From positions 75,865-139,864 of the forward strand of contig JASFQK010000016.1 of assembly GCA_050115495.1 (NCBI GenBank): DNA of 64,000 nucleotides. Direction: 5' to 3'. The stretch's first letter is position 1; each line of letters begins with the position of its first letter. Below are positions 11,559 to 60,271 of the stretch, piece by piece. The position numbers and the translations under genes were made by a program. A model generated the notes under the pieces. The model was not told where the DNA came from and searched no databases. It saw only the letters and a program-made list of their open reading frames with translations. The DNA is from Phycisphaerae bacterium. GTDB lineage: Bacteria > Planctomycetota > Phycisphaerae > UBA1845 > Fen-1342.

Positions 11559-11606
11559 TGATGTGCAGATGTTCGCGGCGAACGGCTGGACTGAAGGGGT
11601 GAGTGG

Positions 11607-12848: not shown

Positions 12849-12896
12849 TGATGTGCGGTTGTCTGCGGCGGACGGTTGGACTGAAGGGGTGAGTGG

Positions 12897-33980: not shown

Positions 33981-35967
33981 GGCTGCCCTCCAGTTCGCAG
34001 GTCACGATGTGACCGGTCAGATCCTCGAAGCTCTCCATGACTTCCTTGAAGTTGGCGTATTCCTCGGGCGGGATCTGCCACCGTTTGATGCGCAGCTCGC
34101 ACGTGTAGTGAATCTGGTTGCCGCTGGTCTCGATCTCGAAGTGCAGCGCGGCCGACGGTCCGTCGAGGTCGACGGGGTCGGGCGTCTCGACAACGCTCCA
34201 GCCGTCGGGCAACTGCAACGTCTCCTCGAAGCGGGCCAGCCGCGTGGCCAGCAGGCTGATGGCGTACTTGCGCTCGTCGAGGCCGGTTTTGCCGAACAGG
34301 TCGTAGATGGTGCGGTTGCCGAGCACGCTCTGCATCATCGGCAGGGCGATGAAGCGACGACCGGCGGTGCCCAGGGCGTAGTCGGGAGCCTCGAAATCGC
34401 AGTGCAGCGTCAGCGGCTCGGAGAAATCAACCGGGTCCGTGCAACGAATGTTGCTCGGTTTGGCGTTTGGGGAAAGCCGCTGGAAAGTGTCGTCGAAGAA
34501 CCCCAGACGCTGATCCGGTGGCAGGCCGGCGAGCGTTCGGCGGAGCCGTCCCTCGGGCGTGCCGCAGGCCACGAAGTCGAGCGAGCCGGTCAGCCCGTTG
34601 TGCCCGTCGATAACGGTGCGCGCCTGCCAGGTGGCGGCGCACTCTTCCGGCGGGAAATAGGGCGACTGCGACAGCTCCTTGCCCTCGGGGATGCCGTAGA
34701 CCACGTGCTGCAACGGCTCGAGCGTCGACCAGTTGTCGCGGCTCTTGGTCATCCACGTCGGGTCGAGCAGTTTCAGCGAGCCGTCCGGCCAGCGGATGCA
34801 GGTGACGGCGTGGTTGAACTGGTCGGCCGGGATGCGGTCGACACGTTGCCGGGCCATGGTCATGACCAGGAACGAGTCGTAGCCGGCGACGCGCAACATC
34901 GTTACCAGCATGCCGGCCTTGTCCTTGCACACGCCGCAGCGGTCGTGGAATGTCTCGATGCTCGGGTGAATCGTATAGCCCTCGCACATCCCGCGGCTCG
35001 TGCCGGCGTAGCGGATGTTTTCGGCCACCCAGTGGTTGAGGGCGGTGTACTTCTCCTCGTCGGTGCGGCAGTCCTTGATGACCTCGGCGACGGTGGCCCG
35101 GATGTCGTCGTCGGCCTCGAACTGCGGCTCGCTGACCTCGTAGAGCCAGCGGCCCTTGTCCTGCCACGTGGGCAGCGTGGCCAGCAGGAGCTTCGGGGCG
35201 ACGTTTGGTGCCGGCTCCATGCTCGGCTCGCGCTCGAACGGCGTGATGTTCTCCTTGGTGAAGGTGTACACCATGTGCTCGTCTTCGAGCTGGACGGAGA
35301 CCCGCACCTCGCCGTTGTAGATCTCGTACTGCAACTGCTTGTCCGTCGGCACACGCACCGTGAAGCGCTTCTCGATGATCGGCACGCCGGACCAGAAGTC
35401 GACCTCGTCGTGCCAGTGCCCCGGGACCGGCGGCTGGAGGGCCACGCCTAGCGCGTTGCGGTCGTCGAAGCCCGGGTCCGCGAGGTAGGCCACGTTGAAG
35501 CCGGTCATGCGGGTGATGGACTCAACGGCGTCGCCGATCTCGAGCCGCGGCAGGTCGATCAGGAACTGATCGGTCGGCCAGAAGATGCCGTGGGCCGGCT
35601 GGGGCTGCTGGGCGGGCCGGTCGATCGACACCTCCTCGACGTCGCCGCCGGCGCGGTAGATGCGGAGGGCGACCAGGTCGAGGCGGTTGGTGTGCGGATC
35701 GAAAGGAAAGCGCTGGACGGCCTGGCTGCGGATGCCGCCGTCGCGGAGGATCTTGACGACTTTGTGCTCGGTGGCGATGCCCAGGCCGTTGGGCATGACC
35801 GTAACATCTTTGTCGTCAACGACATAGACGACGTCGGCGTTCCACTTCTCGGCGTCGCCGGCGGCCTCGATCTTGGCGCGGAGATCGTCGTCCGCGCGCA
35901 GGGCCGGCGGGCACAGCAATAGCCCGAGTCCGGCCAGGATGCAGATTCGCAATCGGCAGGTTCTCAT
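33967..35967 (-). CDS. DUF3857 + transglutaminase-like cysteine protease domain protein
   Basis: WVAENIRY, GVCKDKAGMLV, FNHAV and LLDPT (Cys-His-Asp). Signal peptide. Overlaps the next gene. Confidence 0.85.
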   Translation of the reverse strand: MRTCRLRICILAGLGLLLCPPALRADDDLRAKIEAAGDAEKWNADVVYVVDDKDVTVMPNGLGIATEHKVVKILRDGGIRSQAVQRFPFDPHTNRLDLVALRIYRAGGDVEEVSIDRPAQQPQPAHGIFWPTDQFLIDLPRLEIGDAVESITRMTGFNVAYLADPGFDDRNALGVALQPPVPGHWHDEVDFWSGVPIIEKRFTVRVPTDKQLQYEIYNGEVRVSVQLEDEHMVYTFTKENITPFEREPSMEPAPNVAPKLLLATLPTWQDKGRWLYEVSEPQFEADDDIRATVAEVIKDCRTDEEKYTALNHWVAENIRYAGTSRGMCEGYTIHPSIETFHDRCGVCKDKAGMLVTMLRVAGYDSFLVMTMARQRVDRIPADQFNHAVTCIRWPDGSLKLLDPTWMTKSRDNWSTLEPLQHVVYGIPEGKELSQSPYFPPEECAATWQARTVIDGHNGLTGSLDFVACGTPEGRLRRTLAGLPPDQRLGFFDDTFQRLSPNAKPSNIRCTDPVDFSEPLTLHCDFEAPDYALGTAGRRFIALPMMQSVLGNRTIYDLFGKTGLDERKYAISLLATRLARFEETLQLPDGWSVVETPDPVDLDGPSAALHFEIETSGNQIHYTCELRIKRWQIPPEEYANFKEVMESFEDLTGHIVTCELEGSHAQR

Positions 35968-36130
35968 TCGTGGTCTCCAGGATTCTCGCTCGCAACCCCG
36001 CGCGCAACGCTTCAGCTCGCCGCGTGGTCGGGAGTGTACCCGATCCGCCCCGGGGCGGCCAACCCGTGATTGGGGGGGCTTCGGCGGGCTGCTGGCTGGT
36101 AGCCGTCAGCCCTGAGCCTTGAGCCGGAGT

Positions 36131-36247
36131 GTGGCATGCTGAAGCCTTAGGCGCCGGCATGTCTTTCTTCGGCGTCGGGGAGCACATGCCGGCGTTGCGC
36201 TTCAGCGTGGCACACCCCGTGGCGTCGGCCCCCTGTGGCCGACGTTG
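36131..36247. repeat. REPIN-like palindrome R1 (copy 1) + REP R2
   Basis: GTGGCATGCTGAAGCC.TAGGCGCCGGCATGT...ACATGCCGGCG..GCGCTTC.GC.TG.CAC, then GTGGCGTCGGCCCCCTGTGGCCGACG. Confidence 0.85.
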
Positions 36248-36281
36248 ATCGCCGAACGGCGCGAGTCGTGCCGTTTCCGTT

Positions 36282-37676
36282 TCAGGCCGCCGCGTGCCGG
36301 ATGTCGCGCAGCGCCCGCAGGTAGCGCCGAATGGCGAACGCCAAGCCCAGCATCGGCGGCGTGAACACGGCGACCAGCATCGTGCCCTCGGCCAGAAGCA
36401 TTCGGCCGGTTGGCAGGTGGTCGACCCATTTTCCCCACGGCGTGAGTCCGTGCAGCCCGGCAATGGCGAGAAACGACAGCGGCAGCAGAACCCACATCGG
36501 CAGGAGGAGGACGGTCGCGTAGGCGGTCACAACCGTCGTCGGTCGCGGATCACGCAGCCCGAACCGGCAGGCCAGCAGGGCCACACATCCGCCGCCGATC
36601 ATCGTGAGCAGCAGCGGCAACAGCGTGAGCATGCCAAGCACGAAGACCAACTCGAACCAGGATTCGCCGACGTCCGAGTCCGAGCGGATGTCGTACCAAA
36701 CCGGCCCCGCGACCACCAGCAGGACCCAGAGGGCCGCCAGCCAGCAGACCCGCATGGCGAACCGCACCACCTGCTCCTGCCCGTCGTAGACGACGAGCGT
36801 GCGGAAGAAGTGCGGCTGACGCAGGATCCGCCAGGATGTGCCAGGAAACGCCAGAAGCCGCCGGCCGAGACCGCGCGCCGTGGCCCACGCCGGCGGTTGA
36901 CGCGTGCCGGGCAGCGAGGCGGCGACTTCGAGCCCACACTCGGGGCAGCGGCCGTCCGTGGGCAAGCCGGTCAGTCGATAGCCGCATCCGTCGCAGCACG
37001 CCGGCCGGCGTTCGTCGCCATCCTGATCGAGCCAGTGGACACGCGAGCCGAGCCACAGCAGCAGGTGGAGCCAGTACACCGCGGAGGCGACTGCGGCGAG
37101 CACAACCAGCAGGTCTTCATCGAAGCCGGAGTCCGGCATCTCCCGCACCAGTACGATCAGCGCCAGCACGCCGGCGGCACAAGGCACGATGGCCAGGCTG
37201 CTCCAGAGGACGAGCTTGAGCGCCCGGCCGAAAGCCCGTCGCCGCTTGCTGGCGCTGGCGACAAGCGGTAACAGCCCCCAGGCGAGCAGCCAGCAGAGTG
37301 CGTGACCACAAAGCGGCGGGATGACCACCGGCAGCACGTCCCCTCTGCTGACGAGCACGTGCGCCTTCTCCACCGCGATGACCAACGGCAGCCGAATCTG
37401 CTCCCCGAGGCTCAGGCCGGTGAGGTCCTCCGTCACGAGGTCCGGACCGGCGGATTCGAAGACCAGCAGCACGAACGCCGTCCACAGCAGCAGGGGCACG
37501 ATGTGCACCAGCAGCGCGACGAAGATGCTGGTGCAGGCCAGACGTGGACCGAGACGTCGCGGCAGCACGAGCTGTCCCACCAGCGCCGGCAGGAACAGCA
37601 GGACGCCGATCGGCCGGGCCGGGATCGCCGGGGACCGCGGGGCGCATTCCCAATATTCAGGAACGACGTTGGTCAC
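36282..37676 (-). CDS. Polytopic membrane protein with central zinc ribbon, family A copy 1
   Basis: GTG start overlapping the upstream stop (GTGA). About 10 TM helices in two halves around CDGCGYRLTGLPTDGRCPECG. Confidence 0.85.
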   Translation of the reverse strand: MTNVVPEYWECAPRSPAIPARPIGVLLFLPALVGQLVLPRRLGPRLACTSIFVALLVHIVPLLLWTAFVLLVFESAGPDLVTEDLTGLSLGEQIRLPLVIAVEKAHVLVSRGDVLPVVIPPLCGHALCWLLAWGLLPLVASASKRRRAFGRALKLVLWSSLAIVPCAAGVLALIVLVREMPDSGFDEDLLVVLAAVASAVYWLHLLLWLGSRVHWLDQDGDERRPACCDGCGYRLTGLPTDGRCPECGLEVAASLPGTRQPPAWATARGLGRRLLAFPGTSWRILRQPHFFRTLVVYDGQEQVVRFAMRVCWLAALWVLLVVAGPVWYDIRSDSDVGESWFELVFVLGMLTLLPLLLTMIGGGCVALLACRFGLRDPRPTTVVTAYATVLLLPMWVLLPLSFLAIAGLHGLTPWGKWVDHLPTGRMLLAEGTMLVAVFTPPMLGLAFAIRRYLRALRDIRHAAA

Positions 37677-39208
37677 GGCTCGACGTCCTCGCTGTCAGGT
37701 TCGGGCAGGAACTGGCCGATGGGCGTCGGCACCAATTCGGGTTCGCACTTCGGGTACGGCCGTGGCGAGGAGTAGAGCACGTCGTAATCGTCAAACGATC
37801 TGTTCTGGGCACCGTACGCAACACCACCGTCGTCGTCGCCGTCCCGACCGCGACAGTAGAGCACGTAGCCGTCGCCGTCGCGGCGATAGAGAAACGGAGC
37901 GTCGCCGAACGGGTCGAGTGGAAAGTCGGCGATGTACGTGGGGGTCAGTTCCGCGAGTGTCTCCGGATAGACGCCACGTTCGCTGCGAAAGCGGCTGAGG
38001 GCGATCGCCAGACGCGTCCCGTCGACGGCGGCACCAATATCCAGCGCACGTCGGTAGCCGTGCGTAATCACGGAGACCTCTGCGTAGCGCAACGCGGGGC
38101 CATCGACCAGGCTGAAGGGGACCGTGCGTCTGTACAGACGGTCCATCTCCGTCGCCGCGTCTGCGTACGTCAGCTCGGGCAACCGGCGCAGGTCGTCGCA
38201 GTATCGTGCCCACTTGGCCTCGACCGTGCGGCGATCGCTGTAGAGGAATGATGTGAGGTTCCAGAGCGGGTGCTGCGCGGCGTCTTCGCCGGGAGGTTCG
38301 GTCAGGAGCCGTTCCATCAGCAGCCGTTGCCGACTGAGGACGTACCAGCCGTGGCCGCTGGCGTCACGCGTGTAGCAGGTGTCGATGATGGTCTGGTACA
38401 TGACCTCGTTGCCGGCGATGGCTCTCGACCACATCTGGCTCGGCGTGGGTAGCTGACGCAACACGCGGTCGATGTCGGCGGCGAGAGCGTCGTCGAGCGT
38501 GTGCTCGCGGCTCATGTGCTGCAGTTCTGTGAGGCAGCGGTAGAAGCACGATTCGCGGACGAGCATCACGATTAGCGTGTCGACCGATTCCGGCTGCGCC
38601 AGCCACAGGGCGGATTGCAGGTCTTCCCAGGCCATCGCCAGGTCGCCGCGCTCGGCGTGCTGGTAGCGGGCGTCAGCGGTCAAGTGTGCGGCCATCTCGC
38701 GCATGTGCGTCAGGTCGATCCCCTCGTAGCCGTCCTGCAGAGTGCGCATGTGATCGTATTGCCACGGCCGCCCGCGCAGGTCACGCAGCGCGGCGAGGCG
38801 CTGCCGGGTAGCATCATCTGTGAGATGGGTGATCGCCGCTTGGAGGTGGGGGCGGTCCGCCGGCGTCCATTCACCGCGGGCCACGTCCTCCATGTCGAGG
38901 TCGTTCTGTCGATAGCTCTGGGGCCGCTCCCAACGCATCCCTGCCGGCGGCGCCGGCAGGACGAGCGGTACGTCTTCCGTCAGGGCGAGGACGTGCTCGG
39001 TCACTTCCGCCGTCACGTCGTCGGGTTTCGGCGGGCCCGGCGTGGTGACGCCCTCGAAGATGTCCTCCACGCGCCGCGGCGGCTCGACGGTCAACCGCAG
39101 GTATACGTACCGCGTGCACCACCCGACGAGCAGAAGGGCGATCACCAGGTGCAGGCCCCTGCGGCGCCAGCGGCGGGCGCGGTCGGTCCTCCCCGGTACA
39201 GCAGTCAT
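37673..39208 (-). CDS. N-anchored protein with pseudopilin/GspG-like C-terminus, family B copy 1
   Basis: Basic N-terminus + TM. C-terminal ALSRFRSERGVYPETLAELTPTYIADFPLDPF...YVLYCRGRDGDDDGG. Confidence 0.85.
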   Translation of the reverse strand: MTAVPGRTDRARRWRRRGLHLVIALLLVGWCTRYVYLRLTVEPPRRVEDIFEGVTTPGPPKPDDVTAEVTEHVLALTEDVPLVLPAPPAGMRWERPQSYRQNDLDMEDVARGEWTPADRPHLQAAITHLTDDATRQRLAALRDLRGRPWQYDHMRTLQDGYEGIDLTHMREMAAHLTADARYQHAERGDLAMAWEDLQSALWLAQPESVDTLIVMLVRESCFYRCLTELQHMSREHTLDDALAADIDRVLRQLPTPSQMWSRAIAGNEVMYQTIIDTCYTRDASGHGWYVLSRQRLLMERLLTEPPGEDAAQHPLWNLTSFLYSDRRTVEAKWARYCDDLRRLPELTYADAATEMDRLYRRTVPFSLVDGPALRYAEVSVITHGYRRALDIGAAVDGTRLAIALSRFRSERGVYPETLAELTPTYIADFPLDPFGDAPFLYRRDGDGYVLYCRGRDGDDDGGVAYGAQNRSFDDYDVLYSSPRPYPKCEPELVPTPIGQFLPEPDSEDVEP

Positions 39209-39295
39209 CGAAGCCCTCCACGTCCGCTCGATTGCGGCAACGATCGCGCGTCACCATGAGCGACCGGCCCGCCGCCACAACGCTATCTGGCGTGC

Positions 39296-39323
39296 ATTCT
39301 CCGCCGGCGATCCGTCCCGTCAA
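39296..39323 (-). promoter_or_regulatory. Conserved module promoter (before B1)
   Basis: TTGACG-N16-GAGAAT, followed by AGATAGCGTTGTGGC. Confidence 0.65.
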
Positions 39324-39341
39324 CCCGGCGGGTGGGCGGGT

Positions 39342-39473
39342 GTGGCATGCTGAAGCCCTAGGCGCCGGCATGTCTTTCTTCGGCGTCGCTGAACACATGG
39401 CGGCGCTGCGCATAGGCATGGCACACATCCGTGGCGGCACCGACGTAGCGTCGGCCCCCGTGGCCGACGTCGA
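39342..39473. repeat. REPIN-like palindrome R1 (copy 2) + REP R2
   Basis: Same sequence family as 36131-36247. Confidence 0.85.
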
Positions 39474-39513
39474 TTACCAAGGAACGCTCGAATCGCACGC
39501 TCGCCCCGCGGCC

Positions 39514-40911
39514 CTAGTCGAGCGCGTTGCGGATGTCGCGTAGCCCGCGGGCGTACCGCCGGACCGCGAAGTACAGTGCCGCCATCGGCGACAGGAATAC
39601 TACCGGCAACACACACGCCTGCGCGAATTGCAGTGCCGAGAGCGCCGGCTCTTCGATGCCGTTGTCCGGCGACAGGTGCCACTGCGACAGGGCGAGTCCG
39701 ACCGCGCAAACGGGCAGCAGCAGTCCCAGTGGCAGGAAGAGCGCTGCGGCGTAGCCGGTCAGCACCGTCGTCGGCCGTGGATCGCGCCAGCCGAACCGGC
39801 AGGTCACGAACGCCGCGATCCCGCCGGCGAGCATCGTGATCAGCAGCACCCCCAGGAACAGGCCGCCGAAGAGGAGGGTCGCCGTCGGCCAGTACTGGGG
39901 TAGGCCCACGTCACGGAGCAGCGCCCAATCGAGCGGCGCAGCGCACACCAGAAAGTGCCAGATCGCGACAATCCAGCACATCCGGACGGCGAAGCCGACC
40001 GCCTGGCTGCGTCCGTCGCGCACGGCGAGCGTGCGGAAGTAATGTGGTTGGCGCAGGATCTGCCAGGTCGTGCCGAAAAACGCGCGGAAGCGCCCTTCCA
40101 GACCGCGGGCGGCGAACCAGGGCGGCTGCGAGCGGGCGGTGGGTAGCGACGCGGCCAGTTCCAGCCCGCATTCCGGGCAGCGGCCCGTGATGGGCAGACC
40201 GGTGATCTGATAGCGGCAGCCGACGCAGTGCGGCGATCGTCGCTCAACGGCCTCCCGGCCAAGGCGCGGGACACGTGAGCCGAGCCGCAGCAGCACGTAC
40301 ATCCAGCAAACCGCCAGCAGCACCAGCCAGAACAGGACGAGCCAGTAGTCCACGTCTCCAGCGAAGGAGATGGTTTTCCGTCTCAGTACGATCACGCCCG
40401 CGAGGCCAGCGGACGCAGGCACGAACAGAATGCTGCTCCACAACGTGAGCTTGAGGCACTGGCCAAACGTACGCCACCGGCTGCCCGCATCGCCGACAAA
40501 CGGCACGAGACCCCAGGCGAGAATCCAGCAGGCGGCATGGGCGGCAAGCAGCGTGATCAGGAAGGGCCACACGGTGTACGCGCCCACCAGTGCCTGCGAC
40601 ATCTCAACCCCGACCACGCCCAGCACCCGCACGCGCTCCAGGAAGCTCGACTGGGCGAGTGTGCTCTCGATGTCCCACGGCCACCGCGGAGCAATGGCGA
40701 GCAGCGGGGGAACCACGGTGAGGAGCAGGGCCAGCCCGTGCGCCAACACCGCCTTGAACGGACTGGAGCGGACCAGCCGTGGTCCGAGACGCGCGGGGAT
40801 CAGGAGCAGGCCCGCCAGAATTGGCAGGAAGAGGAGGTAGCCAACCGGCCGAGCCTGAACGGGCGGCTCTGCCGGCGTGGATTCCCAGTACTCGGGGACG
40901 ACGTCGGTCAC
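39514..40911 (-). CDS. Family A copy 2
   Basis: MTDVVPEYWE start, CVGCRYQITGLPITGRCPECG and WQILRQPHYFRTL. GTGA overlap with B2. Confidence 0.85.
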   Translation of the reverse strand: MTDVVPEYWESTPAEPPVQARPVGYLLFLPILAGLLLIPARLGPRLVRSSPFKAVLAHGLALLLTVVPPLLAIAPRWPWDIESTLAQSSFLERVRVLGVVGVEMSQALVGAYTVWPFLITLLAAHAACWILAWGLVPFVGDAGSRWRTFGQCLKLTLWSSILFVPASAGLAGVIVLRRKTISFAGDVDYWLVLFWLVLLAVCWMYVLLRLGSRVPRLGREAVERRSPHCVGCRYQITGLPITGRCPECGLELAASLPTARSQPPWFAARGLEGRFRAFFGTTWQILRQPHYFRTLAVRDGRSQAVGFAVRMCWIVAIWHFLVCAAPLDWALLRDVGLPQYWPTATLLFGGLFLGVLLITMLAGGIAAFVTCRFGWRDPRPTTVLTGYAAALFLPLGLLLPVCAVGLALSQWHLSPDNGIEEPALSALQFAQACVLPVVFLSPMAALYFAVRRYARGLRDIRNALD

Positions 40912-42437
40912 GGTGTGCCCTCATCTGGATGCCCGCCAGGCCGTCGGCTCCTGCCGCGAATCGGCTCCAGACTGGGCTCGTCTCGTGGCTTCGAGCGCGG
41001 CTCAGAGTAGAGCCCGTCACCGTCGTCGGCCGACCCGGAGTGGGGATCGCGTGGCATACCGCCATCGTCATCGCCGTCTCGCCCGTGGGAGTAGAGGACA
41101 TAGTCGTTGCTCCCCACCGGCCGGTAGCCAAACGTCGCCCCGCTGAACGGGTCGGCCGGCAGGGCGGAGAGATACGCGGGCACGAGTTCGGCGAGGGCTT
41201 GGGGATAGGCCCCGTGCTCGCCGCGAAAGCGGGCCAGGGCGAGCGCCACGCGCGTCGCCTCACGCGCGGCCTCCCCACAGACGCGGCGGCTGTAGAGGTT
41301 TTCGTAGCTGTGCCAGCAGAACCAGCACAGGACGCGTCCGTCCAAAAGGTCAAACGGCAGGCCGGGGCCCGTCAGCCGCTCCGCCTCGGCCACGGCTTCG
41401 GCGTAGTCCAGCTCGACGACACGGCGCAGGGCGCCGTAGCACGACGCCCGCTTGGCTTCGACAGTCTGGCGGTCGTTGTAGAGGAACGAGGCGAGGTTCC
41501 AGATCGGCAAGCACGCGTCGGGGCCGACCGGGTCGAAATCAAGCAGCCGCGCGGAGAGCGGCCATTGGCGGGAGAGCACAAACCAACCTTGGCCGTTCGC
41601 GTCGCGCGTGTAGCTGGCGTCGATGATGGCTTGGGCCACGGCCTCCTCGCCGGTGATCGCCGCAGGCCAGGTCCGGCTCAGCGAGGGTAGCTGGCAGAGC
41701 TGGTCGTCCATCTCCTTCAGCAGATCGTCGTCGAGCGTGTGCTCGCGGCTCATGAAGCGCAACTCGTCGAGGCAGGTGCGAAGGCAGGTATCCTGTGCGT
41801 ACGCTGGCAGAGTGCCGTCTATCCGAAGGTCCCGTGCCACCCAGAGCGCGGTTTTCAGGTCTTCCCAGGCCGCCACGACGTCGGCCTGCTCGGCATGCTG
41901 GTAGCGGGCGTCGGCAACGAGCAGGAACGCGATTCGATAAAGGTGTGACAGGCAGAATCCGTCATAGCCCGGCTCTTGCGAGCCACACCAGTCGAACTGC
42001 CAGGGCCGTCCGCGCAGGTCATGGAGGCTGGCGATCCGCTCGCGCGTGTCGTCATCCCGGAGATAGTCGATGACCGCCCGGAGGTGAGGGCGGTCGGCGG
42101 GGGTCCACGGGCCGCGGAGCACATCTTGCGGCGAGAGCACGTACGTGTTCCCCGCGGGCCAAGTCCACTTCATTCCCTTCGGTGCCGGCGGCAGGCGGTA
42201 ACGGACCTCTTCCGCCACGGTGAGCGCCAGCTTCGTCAGCTCCGCCGTGGCGTCATTAGGCTCCCGCGGGCCGGGGGCGGTTATGCCCTTGAAGATGTCC
42301 TCGACACTCCGCGGCGGCTCCACGGTCAGCCGTAGATACGCGTACCACCCGAACCAGCCGAGCAGCAGGGCCGCGATGCCCAGGCGCAGACGGCGCCACC
42401 GTCGAGCGCGGGCGGTCTTCGTCGGCGCGGCGGTCAT
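40908..42437 (-). CDS. Family B copy 2
   Basis: ATG 42437 overlaps the B3 stop (ATGA). YAYLRLTVEPP, ADARYQHAE and YPQALAELVPAYL...DPF...YSHGRDGDDDGG. Confidence 0.85.
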   Translation of the reverse strand: MTAAPTKTARARRWRRLRLGIAALLLGWFGWYAYLRLTVEPPRSVEDIFKGITAPGPREPNDATAELTKLALTVAEEVRYRLPPAPKGMKWTWPAGNTYVLSPQDVLRGPWTPADRPHLRAVIDYLRDDDTRERIASLHDLRGRPWQFDWCGSQEPGYDGFCLSHLYRIAFLLVADARYQHAEQADVVAAWEDLKTALWVARDLRIDGTLPAYAQDTCLRTCLDELRFMSREHTLDDDLLKEMDDQLCQLPSLSRTWPAAITGEEAVAQAIIDASYTRDANGQGWFVLSRQWPLSARLLDFDPVGPDACLPIWNLASFLYNDRQTVEAKRASCYGALRRVVELDYAEAVAEAERLTGPGLPFDLLDGRVLCWFCWHSYENLYSRRVCGEAAREATRVALALARFRGEHGAYPQALAELVPAYLSALPADPFSGATFGYRPVGSNDYVLYSHGRDGDDDGGMPRDPHSGSADDGDGLYSEPRSKPRDEPSLEPIRGRSRRPGGHPDEGTP

Positions 42438-43924
42438 TGTGGTCCTCCGTCCATCGGCACTAACCTGGGCTCGCACATCGGATCCCGGCGCGGCCCGGAG
42501 TAGACCAGGTCACAGTCGTCGACACGCCGGCCTCCCGGGCTGGGAGCGGCGCCGCCGTCGTCATCGCCGTCCGGACCGCGCGAGTAGAGCACATAGGCCT
42601 CGCCATATCGGCGATAGAGGAACGGCGCGTCCCCGAATGGATCCAGCGGCAGAGCGGACATGTACGCCGGCACGAGTTCGGCCAGGCTCTCCGGGTACTT
42701 CCCACGTTCGCTCCGGCAGCGGCCGAGGGCGAGCGCCAGACGCGTCGCGTCGATTTCGGCATGCGTGGCCAGCAGTTGGCAGTACGCCTGCACAAGAGCC
42801 GGTGTGCACAGCCCCTTGAGAACGGCGCCGTCGACCGAGCAGAAGGGTCCGTCGCGCAGGCCCAGCCGATCAATGCTGGTCCGGGCGTCCGCGTAGGTCA
42901 GGTCGACGAGCTGGCGCAGCGCATCGAAGTACCGCGCACGCTTGGCCTCAACCGTGCGGCGATCGCTGTAACAGGCGGACGCCAGGTTCCAGAGCGGGTG
43001 TTGCGCGAACGATCGAGGAATCACAGCCAGCAGTCGGTTCTGTTGCCGGCTGACCACGTACCAGCCCTGGCCGTGCTGGTCGCGAGTGAAGCACGTGTCG
43101 ATCGTACGTTGGATCATCGCTTCCTCGTGGATCACGGCCGCGCGCCACGTTTCGCGCAACGGAGACCATGCGCGCAGGGCGGCGTCGATCTCCGCGACGA
43201 GCGCCTTGTCCGGGGCATGCTCGCGGCTCATTTGCTGCAGTTCCGAGAGAAACAAGCGTGCGTGGCTCAGTTGCAGGATCACGCCGAGCGCGGACTCCGG
43301 TTCATCGGGCTGCGAAAGCCAGATCGCCGTCTTCAGGTCCTGCCAGGCGGCGGCGAGATCGCCACGTTCGGCATGTTGGTAACGGGCGTCGGCCGCCAGC
43401 AGAACGATCGCGCTGTACCGCTTCCACATCTCCAGGCCGGCGTAACGGGGCTCGTCCGAACGGAAAAAGTCGTACTGCCACGGCCGCCCGGACAGGGCGT
43501 GCAAGGCAGCGAGGCGTTCACGCGTCAGGTTGTCGCCGAGATGGGCGATTACGGCCCGTAGGTGGGGACGGTCCACCGGCTTCCACCAGCCACGCGTGAT
43601 GTCGCCAACGGCAAGGTACTCCGGCGTCTCTTGGCGGTGCCACTGCCACTTCATGCCCGCCGGTACGGACGGCAGATCGAACGGGACCTGCTCCGTCAGC
43701 GTGAGGACGAGTTGGCCCAGCTCAGCGGTGACGTCGTCCGGCTCCGGCGGGCCGGGGTCGGTCGCGTCCGCGAAAGCGGCCTGCTCACTGAGCGGCGGCT
43801 CTACCGTCAGCCGCAGGTACGCGTACCGCCCGAAGTGGCTGAGCAGGAGGACGGCAATTGCCAAGTGTGAAATCCACCGCCACCAGCGACCAGCGCCAGC
43901 GGCCCTCCCCCATGCAGTGGTCAT
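42434..43924 (-). CDS. Family B copy 3
   Basis: Full-length paralog with GGGAGG RBS. Confidence 0.85.
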   Translation of the reverse strand: MTTAWGRAAGAGRWWRWISHLAIAVLLLSHFGRYAYLRLTVEPPLSEQAAFADATDPGPPEPDDVTAELGQLVLTLTEQVPFDLPSVPAGMKWQWHRQETPEYLAVGDITRGWWKPVDRPHLRAVIAHLGDNLTRERLAALHALSGRPWQYDFFRSDEPRYAGLEMWKRYSAIVLLAADARYQHAERGDLAAAWQDLKTAIWLSQPDEPESALGVILQLSHARLFLSELQQMSREHAPDKALVAEIDAALRAWSPLRETWRAAVIHEEAMIQRTIDTCFTRDQHGQGWYVVSRQQNRLLAVIPRSFAQHPLWNLASACYSDRRTVEAKRARYFDALRQLVDLTYADARTSIDRLGLRDGPFCSVDGAVLKGLCTPALVQAYCQLLATHAEIDATRLALALGRCRSERGKYPESLAELVPAYMSALPLDPFGDAPFLYRRYGEAYVLYSRGPDGDDDGGAAPSPGGRRVDDCDLVYSGPRRDPMCEPRLVPMDGGPQ

Positions 43925-44020
43925 GGTAATCCTCCCACTTACGCCGCGGCAGTCGGCACGCGGCGACGATCACCTGTTGCGATCGCCAACCGGCGCGGCG
44001 CCGCAGCGCTATCTACCCCT

Positions 44021-44048
44021 ATTCTCTATCGGCGATCGCATTCGTCAA
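44021..44048 (-). promoter_or_regulatory. Conserved module promoter (before B3)
   Basis: TTGACG-N16-GAGAAT, followed by AGATAGCGCTGCGGC. Confidence 0.65.
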
Positions 44049-44056
44049 CCCGGCGC

Positions 44057-44340
44057 GTGGCGTCGGCCCCCCGTGGCCGACGTCGATCGCCAACGGACGC
44101 CCAGCTTGCGTGCAGCGTCCGGCGGGGTGTGGCATGCTGAAGCCTCAGGCGCCGGCATGTCTTTTCTTGGCGTCGGGGAGCACATGCCGAATGGCGCGCG
44201 ACACGCGCGTCTGTCCGAGCCGCGATCGGGAGCGAGCGGTGTGCGCGGACGGCGCGTTGCTGGCGGCAACCCGTCGCTACCGCTCGGGGCTCGGATCGGC
44301 GTTGACACGCCTCACCCGTCACTACCGCTCAGGGCTCGGG
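44057..44340. repeat. Composite repeat cluster: R2, truncated R1 (44129-44189), and R3 doublet with a duplicated right unit
   Basis: The R1 right arm is missing. CCGAGCCGCGATCGGGAGCGAGCGG...ACCCGTCGCTACCGCTCGGGGCTCGG follows. Confidence 0.8.
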
Positions 44341-44371
44341 TTTGTGCTGCGTGGGTCGCTCCCCCATTCCG

Positions 44372-45799
44372 CTACGTCATCGCGTGCCGAACGTCCTGCA
44401 ACGCAACGAAATACCGCCGCAAGCCGACCACGAACGCCCACACCGCCGGCGTGAACGCCACGACCAGCGCGATCCCGTCGGCCAGCAACAGCCCTGATTG
44501 CGGCAATTCATCGACCCACACCTTCCACCCCGTGCACATGTGCAGAACGGCCAGCGCCGCCGGCGCGAGTGGCAGCAGCAAGCCTACCGGCAGGAAGAGC
44601 GCCGCCGCGTAGCCGGTCGCGGTGGTTGTTCGCCCCGGGTCGCGGAATCCGAACCAGCACGCCGCCAGGGCGACCAGCCCGCCGACGAACGTGGTGATCA
44701 GCAGTGTCCCCAGCAGCAGCATGCTGAGCAGCAGCACCATCGCCGGCCAGAACTCCTCGCCGACGCTGTCGTCGGCTTCGGCGAGACCGACCGGTACGGC
44801 GGCCACCAGCATCGTCCACACCGCCACCAGCCAGCACGTGCGTATGGCGAAGCGCACGGCTTGCACCTGGCCTGCGTGCACAGCCAGCGTGCGGAAGAAG
44901 TGTGGCTGGCGCAGAATCCGCCAGGATGTGCCAAACCACGCCCGGCAACGCCGAATCGGACCCCGTGCCGTCGCCCACGCGGGCTGTCGGCGGGCGTCGG
45001 GCGACGCGTCGGCGGATGTCCCGCGGATACCGGGCAACGATACGCCGACCGCCAGGCCGCATTCCGGGCACGTGCCGTCGACCGGCAGTCCGGTGAGCCG
45101 ATAGCCGCAGCCGGTGCAGCACGGCGGTCGCTTCTCGGCCTCCGTCCCGCTGAGCCGATGCACGCGCGAGCCGAGCCACACCAACAGGTGCAGCCAGTAC
45201 ACACCCCAGGCGAGCCAACCCACGACGATCAACAGCTCTTCATCCCACTCGTACGCCGAGTAGTGGTACCTCGCGGCCAGCAGGGCCGACAGACCGGCGG
45301 CGAACGGCACGAACGAGAGGCTGCTCCAGAAGGTGAGCTTCAGTGCGCGAACGAACGTACGGCGCCGCGTCCCGCCGCTGGCGACGATCGGCACCAGGCC
45401 GCGGGCTAGGAACCAGCAACCCACGTGGCCGGCGACGAGCCCGATCACGAGCGACATCGCGTTGGGGCCGCTCGCGGTCGTTTGCATGCTCTCCACGGCG
45501 AAGACGAGCGGCAGGCGGATGATCTCCGAGGTGGTCATGTTCGCTGTCGACACTGAGCGCAACTCGAGCTCGTCGGGCTCCAGGCCGATCAGCACCAGAC
45601 CCGTGCCGAGCACCAGGGCCGCCAGATGCACCAGGATGGCCAGGAAGACGCTGGAGCACGCCAGCCGCGGCCCCAGTCGTCCGGGCAGCACGAATTGCCC
45701 CACAGCCGCCGGCAGGAACAGCAGCAGGCCGATCGGACGTGGCTGGATCGGCGGCTCCGCGGCCGGGGATTCCCAATGTTCGGGGACGACGTCGGTCAC
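44372..45799 (-). CDS. Family A copy 3
   Basis: MTDVVPEHWE and CTGCGYRLTGLPVDGTCPECG. GTGA overlap with B4. Confidence 0.85.
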   Translation of the reverse strand: MTDVVPEHWESPAAEPPIQPRPIGLLLFLPAAVGQFVLPGRLGPRLACSSVFLAILVHLAALVLGTGLVLIGLEPDELELRSVSTANMTTSEIIRLPLVFAVESMQTTASGPNAMSLVIGLVAGHVGCWFLARGLVPIVASGGTRRRTFVRALKLTFWSSLSFVPFAAGLSALLAARYHYSAYEWDEELLIVVGWLAWGVYWLHLLVWLGSRVHRLSGTEAEKRPPCCTGCGYRLTGLPVDGTCPECGLAVGVSLPGIRGTSADASPDARRQPAWATARGPIRRCRAWFGTSWRILRQPHFFRTLAVHAGQVQAVRFAIRTCWLVAVWTMLVAAVPVGLAEADDSVGEEFWPAMVLLLSMLLLGTLLITTFVGGLVALAACWFGFRDPGRTTTATGYAAALFLPVGLLLPLAPAALAVLHMCTGWKVWVDELPQSGLLLADGIALVVAFTPAVWAFVVGLRRYFVALQDVRHAMT

Positions 45800-47355
45800 G
45801 GTTCGCTCTCCTCAGATTCCTCTTCAGGTTCCACCTCGGTCGCGCTCTCGCCGATCGGCACGAGTTCGGGCTCGCACAGTGGCCGTGGACGCCTGTAGGA
45901 GTAGAGCGTGTCCGGGTCGCTACGGGCAGTGCGATCGGGAAACCACGTCTTGCCACCATCGTCAACGCCGTCGTCGCCGCGCGAGTAGAGCACGTACGTG
46001 TCACCGTCTCGGCGATACTGAAACGGCCCGTCGGCGAACGGGTCGAGTGGCAGGTCGGGGATGCAGGTAGGGACGAGTTCGGCAAGGGTCTCCGGATAGA
46101 CGCCGTGTTCACTCTTGAAACGGCTGAGGGCTAGCGTCAGACGCGTCGCGCCCGCGGCGGCGTAGGTGGCGACGGTGTCCTCGTAAGCCCACGGTGTGGA
46201 CCAGAGCATTACCAGGTGAAGCACGCCGCCATCCAAGCTGGTGAAAGGCGACTCTGGTGCGGTGAAGGACTCCCCTCTGGGGGCCATTTCGTCTACCACT
46301 GCCAGAGCGTCCGCGTAGGGCAACTCGGGCAGTGAGCGCAGGAGGTCGTAATATGCCGCCCGCTTGGTCTCAACGGTCCGGCGGTCGTTGTATAGGACCG
46401 AGGCGAGGTTCCAGAGCGGAAGTTGGCCGGCGGTTGCCAAGGCGGTGTCGCGGGAAAGCCGCTTCAGGAGCGGTTGCCGGCGACTGAGGACGTACCATCC
46501 TTGGCCGGTGCCGTCGCGCGTGAAGCAGGCGTCGATCAGACGCTGTGTGGCGGCCTCTTCGCCGTTCATGGCTGCTGGCCAGGTCTGACGCGGCGAGGGC
46601 CACTGGCGCAACACGCGGTCGATGTCGGCGGCCAAGGCGCCGTCGACGATGTGCTCACGGCTCATGTGCTGTAGCTCTGGCAGGAAGAGCCGCGCGCAAC
46701 CTGCTTGCAGGAGTACAGTGAGCAAGGTCTCCACCTCGACTGGCCGCGACAGCCAGATCGCCGTCTGCACGTCCTCCCAGGCGGCCGCGAGGTCGCCGCG
46801 CTCCGCGTGCTGATAGCGGGCGTCGGACGTCAGCAACTTGACGGCGGCGCGCCGTTGCGTCAGCGAGATCCCCTCGTACGTGCCCCGCCTGAAGCCGTAC
46901 TGGTCGTAGTGCCAGGGCCGCCCACGCAGGGCGCGCAGGGCGGCGAGGCGCTCGCGCGTGGCGTCGTCCTCGAGATGAGCGATCACGGCCCGCAGATTGG
47001 GTCGGTCCGCCGGCGTCCACGGGCCACGCGTGATGTCCTCTATGCTGAGATGACCCGCGTCATAGTCGTACCGCCACTTCCACGCCATCCCCTCCGGCGG
47101 TGGCAGCGTGAATGGGACCTCCGCGGTCAGGGCGAGGACGAGCGTCGTCAGCTCCGCCGTGACATCGCCCGGCTCCGGCGGGCCGAGCGGGACCGTGCCA
47201 GCGTACACGTCTTCGACACGGATGGGCGGCTCGACGGTCAGTCGCAGGTAGGCATACCACCCGAACCAGCCGAGCAGCACAGCTACCACACCCAGGCGCA
47301 TACGCCACGGCCACCGGCGACGAGCGTCAGCGGGTCTCCCGGGCGTGCCAGTCAT
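45796..47355 (-). CDS. Family B copy 4
   Basis: ATG 47355 after GGGAGGG; full-length paralog. Confidence 0.85.
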   Translation of the reverse strand: MTGTPGRPADARRRWPWRMRLGVVAVLLGWFGWYAYLRLTVEPPIRVEDVYAGTVPLGPPEPGDVTAELTTLVLALTAEVPFTLPPPEGMAWKWRYDYDAGHLSIEDITRGPWTPADRPNLRAVIAHLEDDATRERLAALRALRGRPWHYDQYGFRRGTYEGISLTQRRAAVKLLTSDARYQHAERGDLAAAWEDVQTAIWLSRPVEVETLLTVLLQAGCARLFLPELQHMSREHIVDGALAADIDRVLRQWPSPRQTWPAAMNGEEAATQRLIDACFTRDGTGQGWYVLSRRQPLLKRLSRDTALATAGQLPLWNLASVLYNDRRTVETKRAAYYDLLRSLPELPYADALAVVDEMAPRGESFTAPESPFTSLDGGVLHLVMLWSTPWAYEDTVATYAAAGATRLTLALSRFKSEHGVYPETLAELVPTCIPDLPLDPFADGPFQYRRDGDTYVLYSRGDDGVDDGGKTWFPDRTARSDPDTLYSYRRPRPLCEPELVPIGESATEVEPEEESEESEP

Positions 47356-47451
47356 CGAAGCCCTCCCATTTACGCTACGGCGGGCGAAGCGGGCCGACGT
47401 TCGCCTGTTGCGACCGCCAGCCGGCATGGCGCCGCAGCGCTATCTGTCTCT

Positions 47452-47479
47452 ATTGTCTGTTGCTCGGCCGGCCCGTCAA
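47452..47479 (-). promoter_or_regulatory. Conserved module promoter (before B4)
   Basis: TTGACG-N16-GACAAT, followed by AGATAGCGCTGCGGC. Confidence 0.65.
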
Positions 47480-47497
47480 CCCGGGGGGTGGGAGAGA

Positions 47498-47760
47498 GTG
47501 GCATGCTGAAGCCTCAGGCGCCGGGATGTCTTCTTCGCGTGGTGGGGACCACATGCCGGCGCTGCGCTTCGGCATGCCACACACGGTAGCGTCGGCCCCC
47601 CGTGGCCGACGTCGAACGCCGAAAGACGCCCAGCTTGCGTGCAGCGCCCGGTCTGCGCCGTCTGTCCGGGCCGCGACCGGTAGGGAGCGGTGTACGCGGA
47701 CAGCGCGTTATTGGCGGCAACCCGTCGCTGCCGCTCGGGGTTCGGACGGGCGTTGACACG
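47498..47760. repeat. Composite repeat cluster: R1 (copy 4), R2, R3
   Basis: R1 at 47498-47580, R2 at 47586-47615 and R3 at about 47665-47746. Confidence 0.8.
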
Positions 47761-47788
47761 CTTGACCTGTCGGTGCCGCCCGTGCCCT

Positions 47789-49300
47789 TCATGGCTTACC
47801 CGGCGTGCCAGTTCCGATCGGCACCAGTTCGGGTTCGAACGCTGGGTCCGGACGCCCGTAGGAGTAGACGTAGTCCGGGTCCCTGAAGGAGGGCCTCCCG
47901 GGCCTGAGCGTAACGCCGCCGTCGTCGATACCGTCCGAACCACGCGAATACAGCACGTACCCGTCGCCATCCCGGCGATACGTGAACGGCGCATTGGCGA
48001 ACGGATCGAGCGGCTGGTCGGAGATGTACATGGGCACGAGTTCCCCCAGCGTCTCCGGGTACACCCCGCGTTCGCCCTTGAAGCGGCAGAGGGCGAGCAT
48101 CAGACGCGTTGCATCGATTGCGGCATACGTAGCGAGCAGTTGGCCGTACGCGTCCCGAAGATGATGCATGTCGATTGTGTTTAGAGCGACGCCGTCGACG
48201 GGGCAAAACGGCCGCGGGGGGGTGCCCAGTCGGTCCAGTTCGACCAGGACGTCGGCGTAGCTCAGATCAACGAGACGGCGCATGGCGTCGAAGTACGCGG
48301 CTCGCTTCGCTTCGACGGAGCGGCGATCGTTGTAGATGACGGACGCCAGATTCCAGAGCGGGTGCTGGGCGAACGCCCCGCAAACCGGTCTGGCGACCCA
48401 CGTCAATCGCGGGTCAGATTGCCGGCTGGGCACACACCATCCCTGACCGTTCTCGTCGAGCGTGAAGCATGCATCGATCGTATGCTGGACGTTTGCCTCT
48501 TCGCCGGCCACGGCTGCTTGCCACGTCTCGTCGAGCGGAGGCCACTGGCGCAGCGTGGCGTCGATCTCCGCGACGAGCGCGGCATCGAGCATGTATTCGC
48601 GACTCATATGCCGCAGCTCCGTGAGGACGATATGAACAGGGGCGCGTCGCATGATCACAGTAAATGCGGTCTCCTCCTCCTCGGGCCGTGCCAGCCAGAG
48701 AGCAGTTTGAAGGTCCCGCCAGGCGGCGGCCAAGTCGCCACGCTGCGCATGCTGGTAGCGGGCGTCGGCTACCAGCAACTGAACGGGGTACCGCCGATTC
48801 GACCACGTGATGCCCCTGTAGTTGGGCTGGATCGAGTTATCGAAATCGAACTGCCACGGCCGTCCGCGCAGGGCGTGCAGGTTGAGAATGCGCAAGCCCG
48901 TGAGGTTGTCCTCCAGATGGGCGATTACCGCCTGCAGTTGAGGACGGCTTGCCGGCGTCCACTCGCCGCGGACGGCATCCCTGATTTCAAGACACGTTAG
49001 CGGCCCGCGGCGATGCCACGTCCATTCCATCCCCTCCGGCGGCGGCGGCAGCGTGAGCGGTACGAGCTGGGTCAGAGGGAGGAGGACCTCGGTTAGCTCG
49101 GCGGTGACGTCGTTTGGCTTCGACGGGCCGGGGTTGGTCGCGTTGCTGAAAACGGCCCAGACGCTGAGCGGTGGGTCCACGGTCAGCCGCAAGTACGCGT
49201 ACCGTCCGAAGCACGCGAGCAGCAGGGCGATGACCACGAGGCGCAGAACCCACCGCCACCAGCGACGAGCGCGGGCGGTCCTCCCCGAGGCAGCAGTCAT
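47789..49300 (-). CDS. Family B copy 5
   Basis: ATG 49300 after GGGAGG; full-length paralog. Confidence 0.85.
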   Translation of the reverse strand: MTAASGRTARARRWWRWVLRLVVIALLLACFGRYAYLRLTVDPPLSVWAVFSNATNPGPSKPNDVTAELTEVLLPLTQLVPLTLPPPPEGMEWTWHRRGPLTCLEIRDAVRGEWTPASRPQLQAVIAHLEDNLTGLRILNLHALRGRPWQFDFDNSIQPNYRGITWSNRRYPVQLLVADARYQHAQRGDLAAAWRDLQTALWLARPEEEETAFTVIMRRAPVHIVLTELRHMSREYMLDAALVAEIDATLRQWPPLDETWQAAVAGEEANVQHTIDACFTLDENGQGWCVPSRQSDPRLTWVARPVCGAFAQHPLWNLASVIYNDRRSVEAKRAAYFDAMRRLVDLSYADVLVELDRLGTPPRPFCPVDGVALNTIDMHHLRDAYGQLLATYAAIDATRLMLALCRFKGERGVYPETLGELVPMYISDQPLDPFANAPFTYRRDGDGYVLYSRGSDGIDDGGVTLRPGRPSFRDPDYVYSYGRPDPAFEPELVPIGTGTPGKP

Positions 49301-49395
49301 CGCATCCTCCCACTTACGCCGCGGCGGTCCGCACGCGGCGACGATCACCTGTCGCGACCGCTGGCCGGCACAGCGCCGCAGCGCTATCTACGTTC

Positions 49396-49423
49396 ATTGT
49401 CTGCCGCTTGGCCGGATCGTCAA
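49396..49423 (-). promoter_or_regulatory. Conserved module promoter (before B5)
   Basis: TTGACG-N16-GACAAT, followed by AGATAGCGCTGCGGC. Confidence 0.65.
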
Positions 49424-49437
49424 CCCGGTGGGTGGGT

Positions 49438-49561
49438 GTGGCATGCTGAAGCCTCAGGCGCCGGCATGTCTTTCTTCGGCGTCGCTGCGCACATGCCGGC
49501 GCTACGCTTCGGCATGCCACACCTGCTACCAGTAGCGTCCGACCTCCGTGTCGGACGTCGA
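49438..49561. repeat. R1 (copy 5) + covariant R2 variant
   Basis: R1 at 49438-49520, then GTAGCGTCCGACCTCCGTGTCGGACGTCG. Confidence 0.85.
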
Positions 49562-49600
49562 ACGCCAACCCACGGTCGTCCTCGCGGTCTTCCGTCTTCC

Positions 49601-49930
49601 AGCCCGCGTAGCGGGCGATGGGATCTAGCCCCGGGTGAGCGAGCGGACGCATTGCGGCCGATCGCGAAACCCGGGGAAGACGCCGGCCCGAACATCCCAA
49701 CCCGCGAAGCGGGTGACGGAATGCGGTCCGGGGCGTATGACCGGCGATGCGTTTCGTCGCCCGCTTCGCGGGCTGCAGAGGGGTTCGGGATGCGTCCTTC
49801 CCCGGGTTCCGTCCGCCGGTGGCGCGTGTTCCCGGGCCGGTCGTAGCTGCCAGCAGGGGATCTGTCGCGCATTTCGCCTCGCTCGCCGGCGGACTCCACC
49901 CGGGGCTACCTTCCTGGGCCCTTCGGGACC
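49601..49930. mobile_element. Non-autonomous multi-hairpin palindromic element (MITE/REPIN-like)
   Basis: AGCCCGCGTAGCGGGCGA, TAGCCCCGGGTGAG...AACCCGGGGAAG and their inverted counterparts TCGCCCGCTTCGCGGGCT, CTTCCCCGGGTT...CACCCCGGGGCTA. No credible ORF. Confidence 0.55.
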
Positions 49931-49990
49931 AGCGGGCTCGCGCCTTCTGTATCGGTCGTTGAACGCCGAAGAGAGCGCGAGGCGCACTTC

Positions 49991-50075
49991 TGTCCGAGCC
50001 GCGATCGGGAGAGAGTGGTTTGCGCAGACGGCGCGTTATTGGCGGCAACCCGTTGCTACCGCTCAGGGCTCGGAT
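49991..50075. repeat. R3 doublet (copy 3)
   Basis: TGTCCGAGCCGCGATCGGGAGAGAGTGG...GGCGGCAACCCGTTGCTACCGCTCAGGGCTCGGA, as at 44212-44295. Confidence 0.75.
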
Positions 50076-50113
50076 TGGGGCTGTGGGGCTCCGCCGGAAT
50101 GCCGGCGGATTGA

Positions 50114-51247: not shown

Positions 51248-51363
51248 CACTCGTCCAGGTCTGACCGCCAATCCGGGCGGCCGTGGCGAGTGATTATGCA
51301 CTCCCCGGCCGGCGGTTCAAGGGTCACCGCCGACCGGGAGTGCCGGAAACGGCCCTCGCGAGG

Positions 51364-59973: not shown

Positions 59974-60271
59974 GATGCCTGCTCCTGAAGAGAGGTGAAG
60001 TGGTTTTGCGGATAGTCGGCGCACCCGTCAGCCCCGTTTGCGACCCGTTTGGCAGGCACGGCCGCGATGGCGCGCCCATCCGTTGGACGCGCGGCCGTTG
60101 CCTCAGGTTCCCGATATCTTACGACCGTTCTGCCCGGGAGTTGCGTAACGCGCCTGTAACAACGTCCGTGCGCGCCCGCAGGGCCGATGGGCGGTTGCCG
60201 GCCCGCGGAATTCATGGCAGAATCGCGACTCACTCAACCTGACGCCGCGACCGGCAGGCAAGGAGGATCAA

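Follow-up and report, generated by a model that had tools for sequence, protein, structure and literature searches.

Certain Phycisphaerae bacteria encode a pair of adjacent membrane proteins, here termed B and A, of which a tandem array of eight genes lies on the minus strand of the window analysed in this study (a 64,000-nucleotide stretch of DNA from a Phycisphaerae bacterium; all coordinates below are positions in this window unless a contig or locus is named). The pair is new and neither protein bears a family name. B and A constitute a free-standing two-gene unit, and their products very probably form a complex. On our reading, to which we give an even chance of being right as a whole, the unit is an inner-membrane module in which the B:A complex works as a split receptor. 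In the direction of transcription the array comprises four modules, B5, B4-A3, B3-B2-A2 and B1-A1, as follows.

B5: 47789..49300, minus strand; 503 residues from an ATG supported by a ribosome-binding site (the longest open reading frame reaches 49348); no A downstream; sister of B3
B4: 45796..47355, minus strand; 519 residues from an ATG supported by a ribosome-binding site (the longest open reading frame reaches 47427); GTGA stop/start overlap with A3
A3: 44372..45799, minus strand; 475 residues, polytopic, with a predicted Cys4 ribbon
B3: 42434..43924, minus strand; 496 residues; ATGA overlap between its stop and the start of B2
B2: 40908..42437, minus strand; 509 residues; GTGA overlap with the start of A2; the most divergent B of the array
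A2: 39514..40911, minus strand; 465 residues
B1: 37673..39208, minus strand; 511 residues; arginine-rich N-terminal tail, a single predicted membrane helix (about 18-36), helical periplasmic body and predicted pseudopilin-fold head (383-486) with an acidic loop
A1: 36282..37676, minus strand; 464 residues; eight predicted membrane helices, periplasmic helix 90-110 (predicted contact to B), predicted cytoplasmic Cys4 ribbon 228-247 and Yip1-like C-terminal half

All eight reading frames (five B, three A) are open, with zero internal stops, in the order given by the first-pass annotation of this DNA, and the overlaps it described are found at every junction, GTGA at B4-A3, B2-A2 and B1-A1 and ATGA at B3-B2. 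GGAGG sequences of the Shine-Dalgarno type point to the later ATG starts of B5 (49300) and B4 (47355), and the start of B2 is placed at 42437 by the ATGA overlap. Pairwise identity is 50-58% among the B copies and 46-55% among the A copies. Five of the motifs previously listed as fixed in B (YxYLRLTVxPP, DARYQHA, PxWNLxSxxYxDR, YPxxLxELxP and DPF) are indeed present in 5/5 proteins, while the sixth, YSRGxDGxDDGG, is exact in three and carries a single substitution in the remaining two.

Coupling of B to A was surveyed in 60 related genomes and, more widely, in 401 genomes of the class, where only three to four candidates were scored per genome and copy counts are not possible (the class tallies include one unpublished genome, G323, on which no other claim depends). 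With the host genome excluded, 17 of the 19 A loci of near full length in the 60 relatives have B directly 5' of A; these 17 include a locus joined from two overlapping contig ends (G031), one with a split B (G060) and one with a B fragment at a contig end (G046), and the two misses (G030, G054) are A genes of the coupled subfamily without an upstream B. The class-wide search added eight A loci at E < 1e-43, all coupled to B and some with frameshifts, whereas none of the next 14 A-like loci fetched has a B within 1.5 kb; a weaker A in G401, outside those 14, has B upstream. Seen from the B side, A follows 14 of 17 matches at E <= 1e-60 (host genome again excluded), the misses being G030 and two members of another clade. 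Two further B-A pairs exist in the host genome itself (contigs C38 and C42); their genes are 3 bp apart and share about 30% identity with those of the array. The single metagenome match is one B-A pair. Most B-A junctions overlap or lie within about 15 bases, and all coupled loci with a kinship label come from the family or order of the analysed organism. Among the 206 flanking open reading frames of 22 loci, no protein is common to more than three loci, and B-A is thus a free-standing two-gene unit.

These results uphold the co-location and the two-partner character claimed at first pass, but not the word obligate, given five B for three A genes in the array, the A genes without B in G030 and G054, and the absence of B beside the 14 wider A-like genes. 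No fused A-B protein was scored among 8000 candidates (proteins of 964-2750 residues), which is weak evidence. Distances among A and among B proteins correlate over 30 pairs (Mantel r 0.76), as expected from joint inheritance and not as proof of contact. B or A is split by frameshifts, stops or insertions in G060 (locus L108), G226 (L177), G321 (L179, L239) and G044 (L131), which suggests frequent decay or sequencing error. The host genome also carries two tandem distant A-like genes without B (contig C36, 2986-5728; L004), both with a first outer loop that is devoid of the predicted B-binding helix. No description of the pair was found in the literature searched, which covered few subscription papers, and neither protein matches a characterised family, in keeping with the earlier suggestion of an undescribed system.

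A physical B-A complex is supported by structure prediction. Using B1 (residues 1-500) and A1 with our own alignments, in three runs and with three controls, the interface score ipSAE was 0.68 in 3/3 runs while the best of the three controls reached 0.00, with contact agreement of at least 92% and partner pLDDT (predicted local distance difference test) of at least 78. The mark used for this score is reached by 116/157 solved pairs as opposed to 2/215 mismatched pairs, counts that are only rough for alignments such as ours. An interface between the cognate partners, one of the checks proposed earlier, is thus predicted, and we consider it very likely that the complex forms. Predicted contacts connect B 291-295, 307-311, 316-324 and 360-371 to A 78-114, and the membrane helix of B to A 26; the B regions coincide with fixed motifs of the first-pass annotation, and both surfaces are placed in the periplasm by an independent hydropathy and positive-inside analysis. 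Searches by fold and by profile found no similar complex among solved structures, which makes memory an unlikely source of the prediction. Among 33 coupled B proteins the contact region features N317 (33), W316 (28), G370 (29) and W288 (30), all rare in PadR-linked B-like proteins (described below), where N317 is not among the three commonest residues of 13 sequences. On the A side, R95 occurs in 27/33 coupled proteins, is not among the commonest residues in 14 free A-like proteins and is absent from both orphan A proteins.

B is predicted to be a single-pass protein with a periplasmic body ending in a pseudopilin-fold head. The AlphaFold2 model (136 sequences; pLDDT 93, predicted template modelling score (pTM) 0.91) has a helical bundle and a long N-terminal helix in which the sole hydrophobic stretch (18-36) lies. 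Residues 383-486, at the C-terminal end, can be superposed on EpsG, a major pseudopilin (Z 10.3, root-mean-square deviation 2.6 over 93 residues), and on PulG (Z 8.9), with several type IV pilins next. At the sequence level, a B profile matches GspG (2kep) with E 0.009. Foldseek with the whole model returned nothing at E <= 0.001 and ranked EpsG 8th with probability 1.00. The likeness of the B C-terminus to GspG, noted earlier from a motif, therefore extends to the head fold of GspG, EpsG and PulG (PF08334; PDB 4lw9, 5wda, 2kep), including the C-terminal half of the long helix. Unlike these pseudopilins, B has no class III signal peptide or prepilin motif (G|F/LTLIE) at its N-terminus (0/128 B-family sequences), as also previously noted, and is missing the membrane-inserting part of the pilin; its head is C-terminal in a protein of 500 residues, behind about 340 residues of other helices. 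It scores below the family cut-offs, with 12-15 bits against 21 for PF08334 in four of the five B proteins and 13-19 bits against 88.85 for TIGR01710 in two of the five.

An acidic loop of the B head is conserved (D/N456 in 111/121, D459 in 107/118 and D476 in 117/120 sequences), is longer than that of PulG and aligns with the SxGxDG loop of GspG. A second loop, 282-287, has the pattern DxxGxG, which we take to resemble the calcium motif Dx[DN]xDG. About 17 residues, a short basic tail, precede the membrane helix of the array B proteins, and no signalling domain is present. For the SxGxDG loop, passages of PMC13081927 describe calcium bound in PulG/OutG via D117 and D125. Family-library scans together with fold and profile searches found no catalytic family for B, and a CxxC ribbon is absent from 150 B representatives and from the B-like reading frames of the surveyed loci except for one kinase fusion.

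The A model (pLDDT 89) and averaged hydropathy yield eight membrane helices after an amphipathic N-terminal segment. Judged by the bias of lysine and arginine, both termini and the Cys4 ribbon are cytoplasmic and the loop 74-117 lies outside; the predicted cytoplasmic domain spans 208-305. C228, C231, C244 and C247, two CxxC pairs, are invariant in 44/44 A sequences and are predicted to form a cytoplasmic C4 zinc ribbon, consistent with the polytopic protein with a cytoplasmic ribbon envisaged at first pass. Fold searches with A turned up nothing clear, the best Z being 6.9, with Foldseek empty at E <= 0.001 and no Yip1 structure listed among the results; this excludes nothing. The fold searches suggested earlier hence link the B head to EpsG and PulG and assign neither protein to a characterised family.

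On three weak signals we call A 'Yip1-like', which is not to say that it has been shown to be a member of that family. Its C-terminal half aligns to 22 Planctomycetota Yip1 domains with a probability of 54% over 175 columns (score 29, as against at most 11 in 20 block shuffles), the N-terminal half with 0.1% (4/20 shuffles score as high), and an atlas lead of 0.78 connects A to a cluster with 37% Yip1. The PF04893 cut-off is not reached, the best score being 15.3 bits against 28.6 (N-terminal half of A1, E 0.04 for one genome); scans of 21 A members gave no match and 1/30 matched at E 0.68. In the C-terminal half, the amphipathic start (T..+l..P..FF) and the third helix (G...t...Ya..P) are as in bacterial Yip1 proteins such as Bacillus YknW, and A, like YknW, appears to partner a single-pass extracytoplasmic protein. 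A differs from them in being twice as long, in its central Cys4 ribbon and, in the model, in having four instead of five helices per half. An internal duplication of A, visible by eye in its two similar-looking halves, was rejected as not significant (11/20 shuffles as high).

The wider B family places the periplasmic domain of B in signalling contexts. B-like proteins occur in 248/401 genomes of the class, and 10,258 representatives match the B profile at E <= 1e-10, many probably via the head alone. In a tree of 104 B-like rows the coupled clade comprises 41 rows (split support 98), namely the five array copies, 31 rows with A downstream, G031, one split-B fragment and three without A. Outside this clade, 13 of 63 rows lie behind a PadR gene and have a HAAS-type N-terminus (PadR was called once by Pfam and otherwise by similarity, HAAS by two sub-threshold Pfam matches and a motif of our own). 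The extracytoplasmic part of these HAAS-membrane proteins matches the B profile at E 2e-28 to 1e-50, and the gene order, PadR followed by HAAS-membrane-B-domain, is found in several families (L126, L128, L138, L139, L157, L245, L246, L248, L249 and L251-L254). HAAS-PadR has been proposed as a membrane signal-transducing pair in which HAAS relays from fused sensor domains to PadR (Ravi et al. 2024, in passages of PMC11237479); 'planctomy' is absent from the main text of that paper and GspG/pseudopilin from one supplementary file. The periplasmic domain of B is homologous to the extracytoplasmic part of members of HAAS-PadR-like winged helix-turn-helix dyads (PF22564, PF03551) at 13 loci. The array B proteins differ from such dyads in lacking a Pfam HAAS match; among A-coupled B proteins, the HAAS-type motif and an upstream PadR are each found in 0/32, and none of the five PadR matches of the host genome is on the array contig.

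Other rows outside the coupled clade have different partners. Six of the 63 are convergent, tail-to-tail, with a gene for a small zinc-ribbon membrane protein whose membrane part matches the C-terminal half of A (probability 89%), one follows a distant A-like gene and one an extracytoplasmic function (ECF) sigma factor. At L152 (1038-6311) an ECF sigma factor precedes a 1500-residue zinc-ribbon/Ser-Thr kinase protein with a B-like C-terminal domain. Nothing of the kind was seen for the rest of the rows. That two separate subclades combine B-like genes with genes for zinc-ribbon membrane proteins speaks for a functional link. Host contig C18 (102015-109708; L003 5013-12724) has four tandem distant B-like genes overlapping tail-to-tail with a small zinc-ribbon membrane gene, a convergent arrangement that recurs at L147, L153, L154, L159 and L161. 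About 13 B-like relatives have, by eye, a signal-peptide-like N-terminus and no cytoplasmic part. A clade of B-like proteins of about 700 residues with such a start, also judged by eye, and an extra unannotated N-terminal domain is represented in the host genome (C23, 71244-73391) and at L125, L127, L130, L133, L141-L144, L146, L149, L151, L158 and L164.

Since B-like relatives are associated with HAAS/PadR, with ECF sigma factors or with a kinase, we consider a split membrane sensor the likeliest function of the pair. In the simplest version the outer domain of B would be a plug-in sensor and A would stand in for the missing cytoplasmic output. The periplasmic part of B would be the domain that in distant relatives is wired to a cytoplasmic output, be it HAAS with PadR, an ECF sigma factor or a Ser/Thr kinase; in the present lineage B, devoid of an output of its own, would pass its state to A through the membrane-proximal WNLxS, LS and DG(P) motifs, predicted to dock on the periplasmic helix of A (about 90-110). 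The cytoplasmic face of A with its zinc ribbon would then recruit an unlinked partner, and the A-less B5 and B3 would borrow A made elsewhere in the array. ToxR-ToxS, CadC-LysP and PspB-PspC are split membrane sensors with an auxiliary membrane partner, and we propose that they share this logic, an extracytoplasmic domain on one protein that needs a second membrane protein to signal. They differ in that an output domain or regulator is identified in those systems and none for B-A. Of the three functions first proposed for the pair, sensing is accordingly the best supported and transport and surface variation find little support.

Several observations weigh against a split receptor. At the 22 loci the B-A pairs have no linked gene for a regulator, a kinase or a sigma factor, and with no output found for A we place the reading at even chances. 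The complex is a prediction on our own alignments that supports binding and shows none in cells; its clade-specific interface residues may reflect descent alone, the profile was built from the coupled clade, and four B-like proteins without an adjacent A keep N317. The likeness of A to Yip1 is weak and confined to one half, the share of coupled rows in the tree is inflated because most coupled loci were found via A, and 43 of the 63 rows outside the clade had no A-like, small-partner or PadR neighbour by the tests used. HAAS is moreover fused to permeases and RodA-type proteins as well (passages of PMC11237479), so that a HAAS fusion is no proof that the fused domain senses. A bolder version posits a receptor class of the Planctomycetes-Verrucomicrobia-Chlamydiae group in which a non-polymerising pseudopilin head serves as a periplasmic sensing or mimicry module on varied outputs (HAAS-PadR, ECF, kinase), the output being replaced in one Phycisphaerae order by a signal-relaying Yip1-like zinc-ribbon co-receptor with paralogue-specific B:A pairing; we regard this as speculative and rather unlikely. 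Interface positions among the array copies are only 39% and 43% identical.

Among other explanations, the pair could build or maintain the envelope, with A as a Yip1-like scaffold positioning a B that works in the periplasm and with PadR or ECF factors only regulating such an effector. The alignment of the A C-terminal half to Yip1 domains fits this idea, as do the modulation of membrane-complex assembly by YknW (reported in passages of PMC4887032), the B-like relatives without a cytoplasmic part and the envelope genes that neighbour the array. These neighbours are not conserved at other pairs, however, no catalytic family was found for B, and the kinase and ECF associations suit a sensor better, which leaves an envelope unit unlikely. 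Neither is any ABC ATPase, permease or membrane fusion protein conserved beside the pair at the 22 loci, in contrast to exporters of the YknWXYZ type. It is less probable still that B is a non-polymerising pilin mimic whose head is held over the membrane by A so as to cap, tune or monitor a machine for type II secretion or type IV pili whose genes lie elsewhere. The matches to EpsG and PulG, the start of the pilin helix right after the A-contacting DG(P) motif, the conserved acidic loop and a true GspG of the host genome on another contig than the array all agree with such a mimic, yet the prepilin motif is absent, the 22 loci show no conserved pilus or secretion gene, be it for an ATPase, a platform protein, a secretin or a peptidase, and the head, which belongs to a larger, compact fold, recurs in PadR-linked and kinase proteins.

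Were A to act as a channel or permease, with B as the subunit that binds substrate in the periplasm or serves as adaptor, eight predicted helices in two similar-looking halves and copies that are most variable in the periplasmic loops would be accounted for. We think this improbable, as the surroundings hold no conserved gene for an ATPase or energiser, the repeat within A lacks significance, and two other genes stand between the array and the ABC genes of the window (29498-31656). The least credible alternative, to which we attach very little weight, is that diversifying selection acts on the array as a repertoire for surface variation, phage reception or immunity. Separate promoters, variable segments between fixed motifs, which in B lie at 151-175, 211-225 and 376-390, and pairwise ratios of nonsynonymous to synonymous substitution rates (dN/dS) of 0.35-0.62 speak for it. 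All of these ratios are nevertheless <1, B has an inner-membrane-type anchor, and other loci hold a single pair. As a control we compared 13 array pairs with pairs of 44-62% identity from 2,638 filtered open reading frames of the host genome. The array resembles 57 other tandem pairs in median excess synonymous similarity (0.28 vs 0.25) and in pN/pS (0.62 vs 0.58); in 138 dispersed pairs less synonymous similarity remains than in either group. The array therefore needs no special explanation, the diversified repertoire of the first-pass annotation is unsupported, and special diversifying selection was rejected. Many tandem paralogue arrays of similar apparent age exist in the host genome, the 57 pairs lying within 15 kb.

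The pair is carried in the window by an array that appears local in origin. The five array B proteins form one clade (approximate likelihood-ratio support, SH-aLRT, 99 in a quick tree) in which the A-less B5 and B3 are sisters. The array was not found in other genomes, as judged by the 5-17 kb loci fetched, which hold single pairs, and by one metagenome match; other genomes have one to three dispersed B-A pairs, and six genomes of the same genus (84-93% complete) gave partial, distant matches only. Promoter-like sites and repeats delimit the modules as follows.

49436..50078, cluster of repeats ahead of the B5 promoter; contains a 330-nucleotide long inverted-repeat element
49396..49423, minus strand, sigma-70-type promoter-like site before B5 (scan)
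47494..47779, repeat cluster separating B5 from the B4 promoter
47452..47479, minus strand, promoter-like site before B4 (scan)
44056..44328, repeat cluster between A3 and the B3 promoter, with a rearranged first repeat and a second repeat type
44021..44048, minus strand, promoter-like site before B3 (scan)
39340..39474, repeat between A2 and the B1 promoter, the same genome-wide palindromic repeat as after A1
39296..39323, minus strand, promoter-like site before B1 (scan)
36125..36262, copy after A1 of a genome-wide palindromic repeat resembling repetitive extragenic palindromic (REP) elements

A sigma-70 scan of 14.3 kb (35900-50200) found exactly four sites of the form TTGACG-16-GA[C/G]AAT, compared with 1.0 +/- 1.0 in 50 shuffles, each 88-97 nucleotides 5' of the first ATG of its module, in keeping with the notion of one promoter per module. 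The module upstream region occurs only four times in the whole genome, and the promoter pattern was found upstream of B at 0/21 other loci. The palindromic repeats reported at the module boundaries were likewise confirmed and are elements found genome-wide, one repeat unit having 91 matches of at least 50 nucleotides, with matches on 54 contigs. The 330-nucleotide element (49600-49930), a long inverted repeat with copies on about 11 contigs, is possibly a miniature mobile element. In read run X1, a possible source of the DNA, each module assembled as one contig with zero differences and even depth (19-22); two low-share DNA runs gave short scattered pieces only. The array copies are thus real and not an assembly duplication; as the contigs break only at repeats, the order of modules across the repeats depends on the assembly. 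That repeats bound every module fits repeat-mediated duplication, and the array may have arisen when repeat-bounded cassettes of promoter and B, with or without A, were duplicated locally, once this lineage had split from the other genomes sampled.

The array is flanked by genes at 32130-35967 (minus), 50114-51301 (minus), 51364-60024 (minus) and 60272-61495 (plus), none of which is conserved beside other B-A pairs. Their products are two DUF3857 transglutaminase-like proteins, a GH113 glycoside hydrolase, a 2886-residue TPR-rich alpha-2-macroglobulin and MltA. Elsewhere in the window, 10209-14141 (plus) holds a further local amplification, a run of three paralogues that have a zinc ribbon at the N-terminus and a membrane helix, and 7390-10242 (minus) two tandem genes, each with a C-terminal SecDF P1 head subdomain.

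All the pairs found belong to a single order of uncultured bacteria, and the tandem array adds little to the significance of the finding. The B domain gains a fold, signalling contexts and a candidate membrane partner with a specific predicted interface. If the split-receptor reading is true, the pilin fold would have been reused outside any filament, and a Yip1-like bacterial protein would acquire a concrete role.

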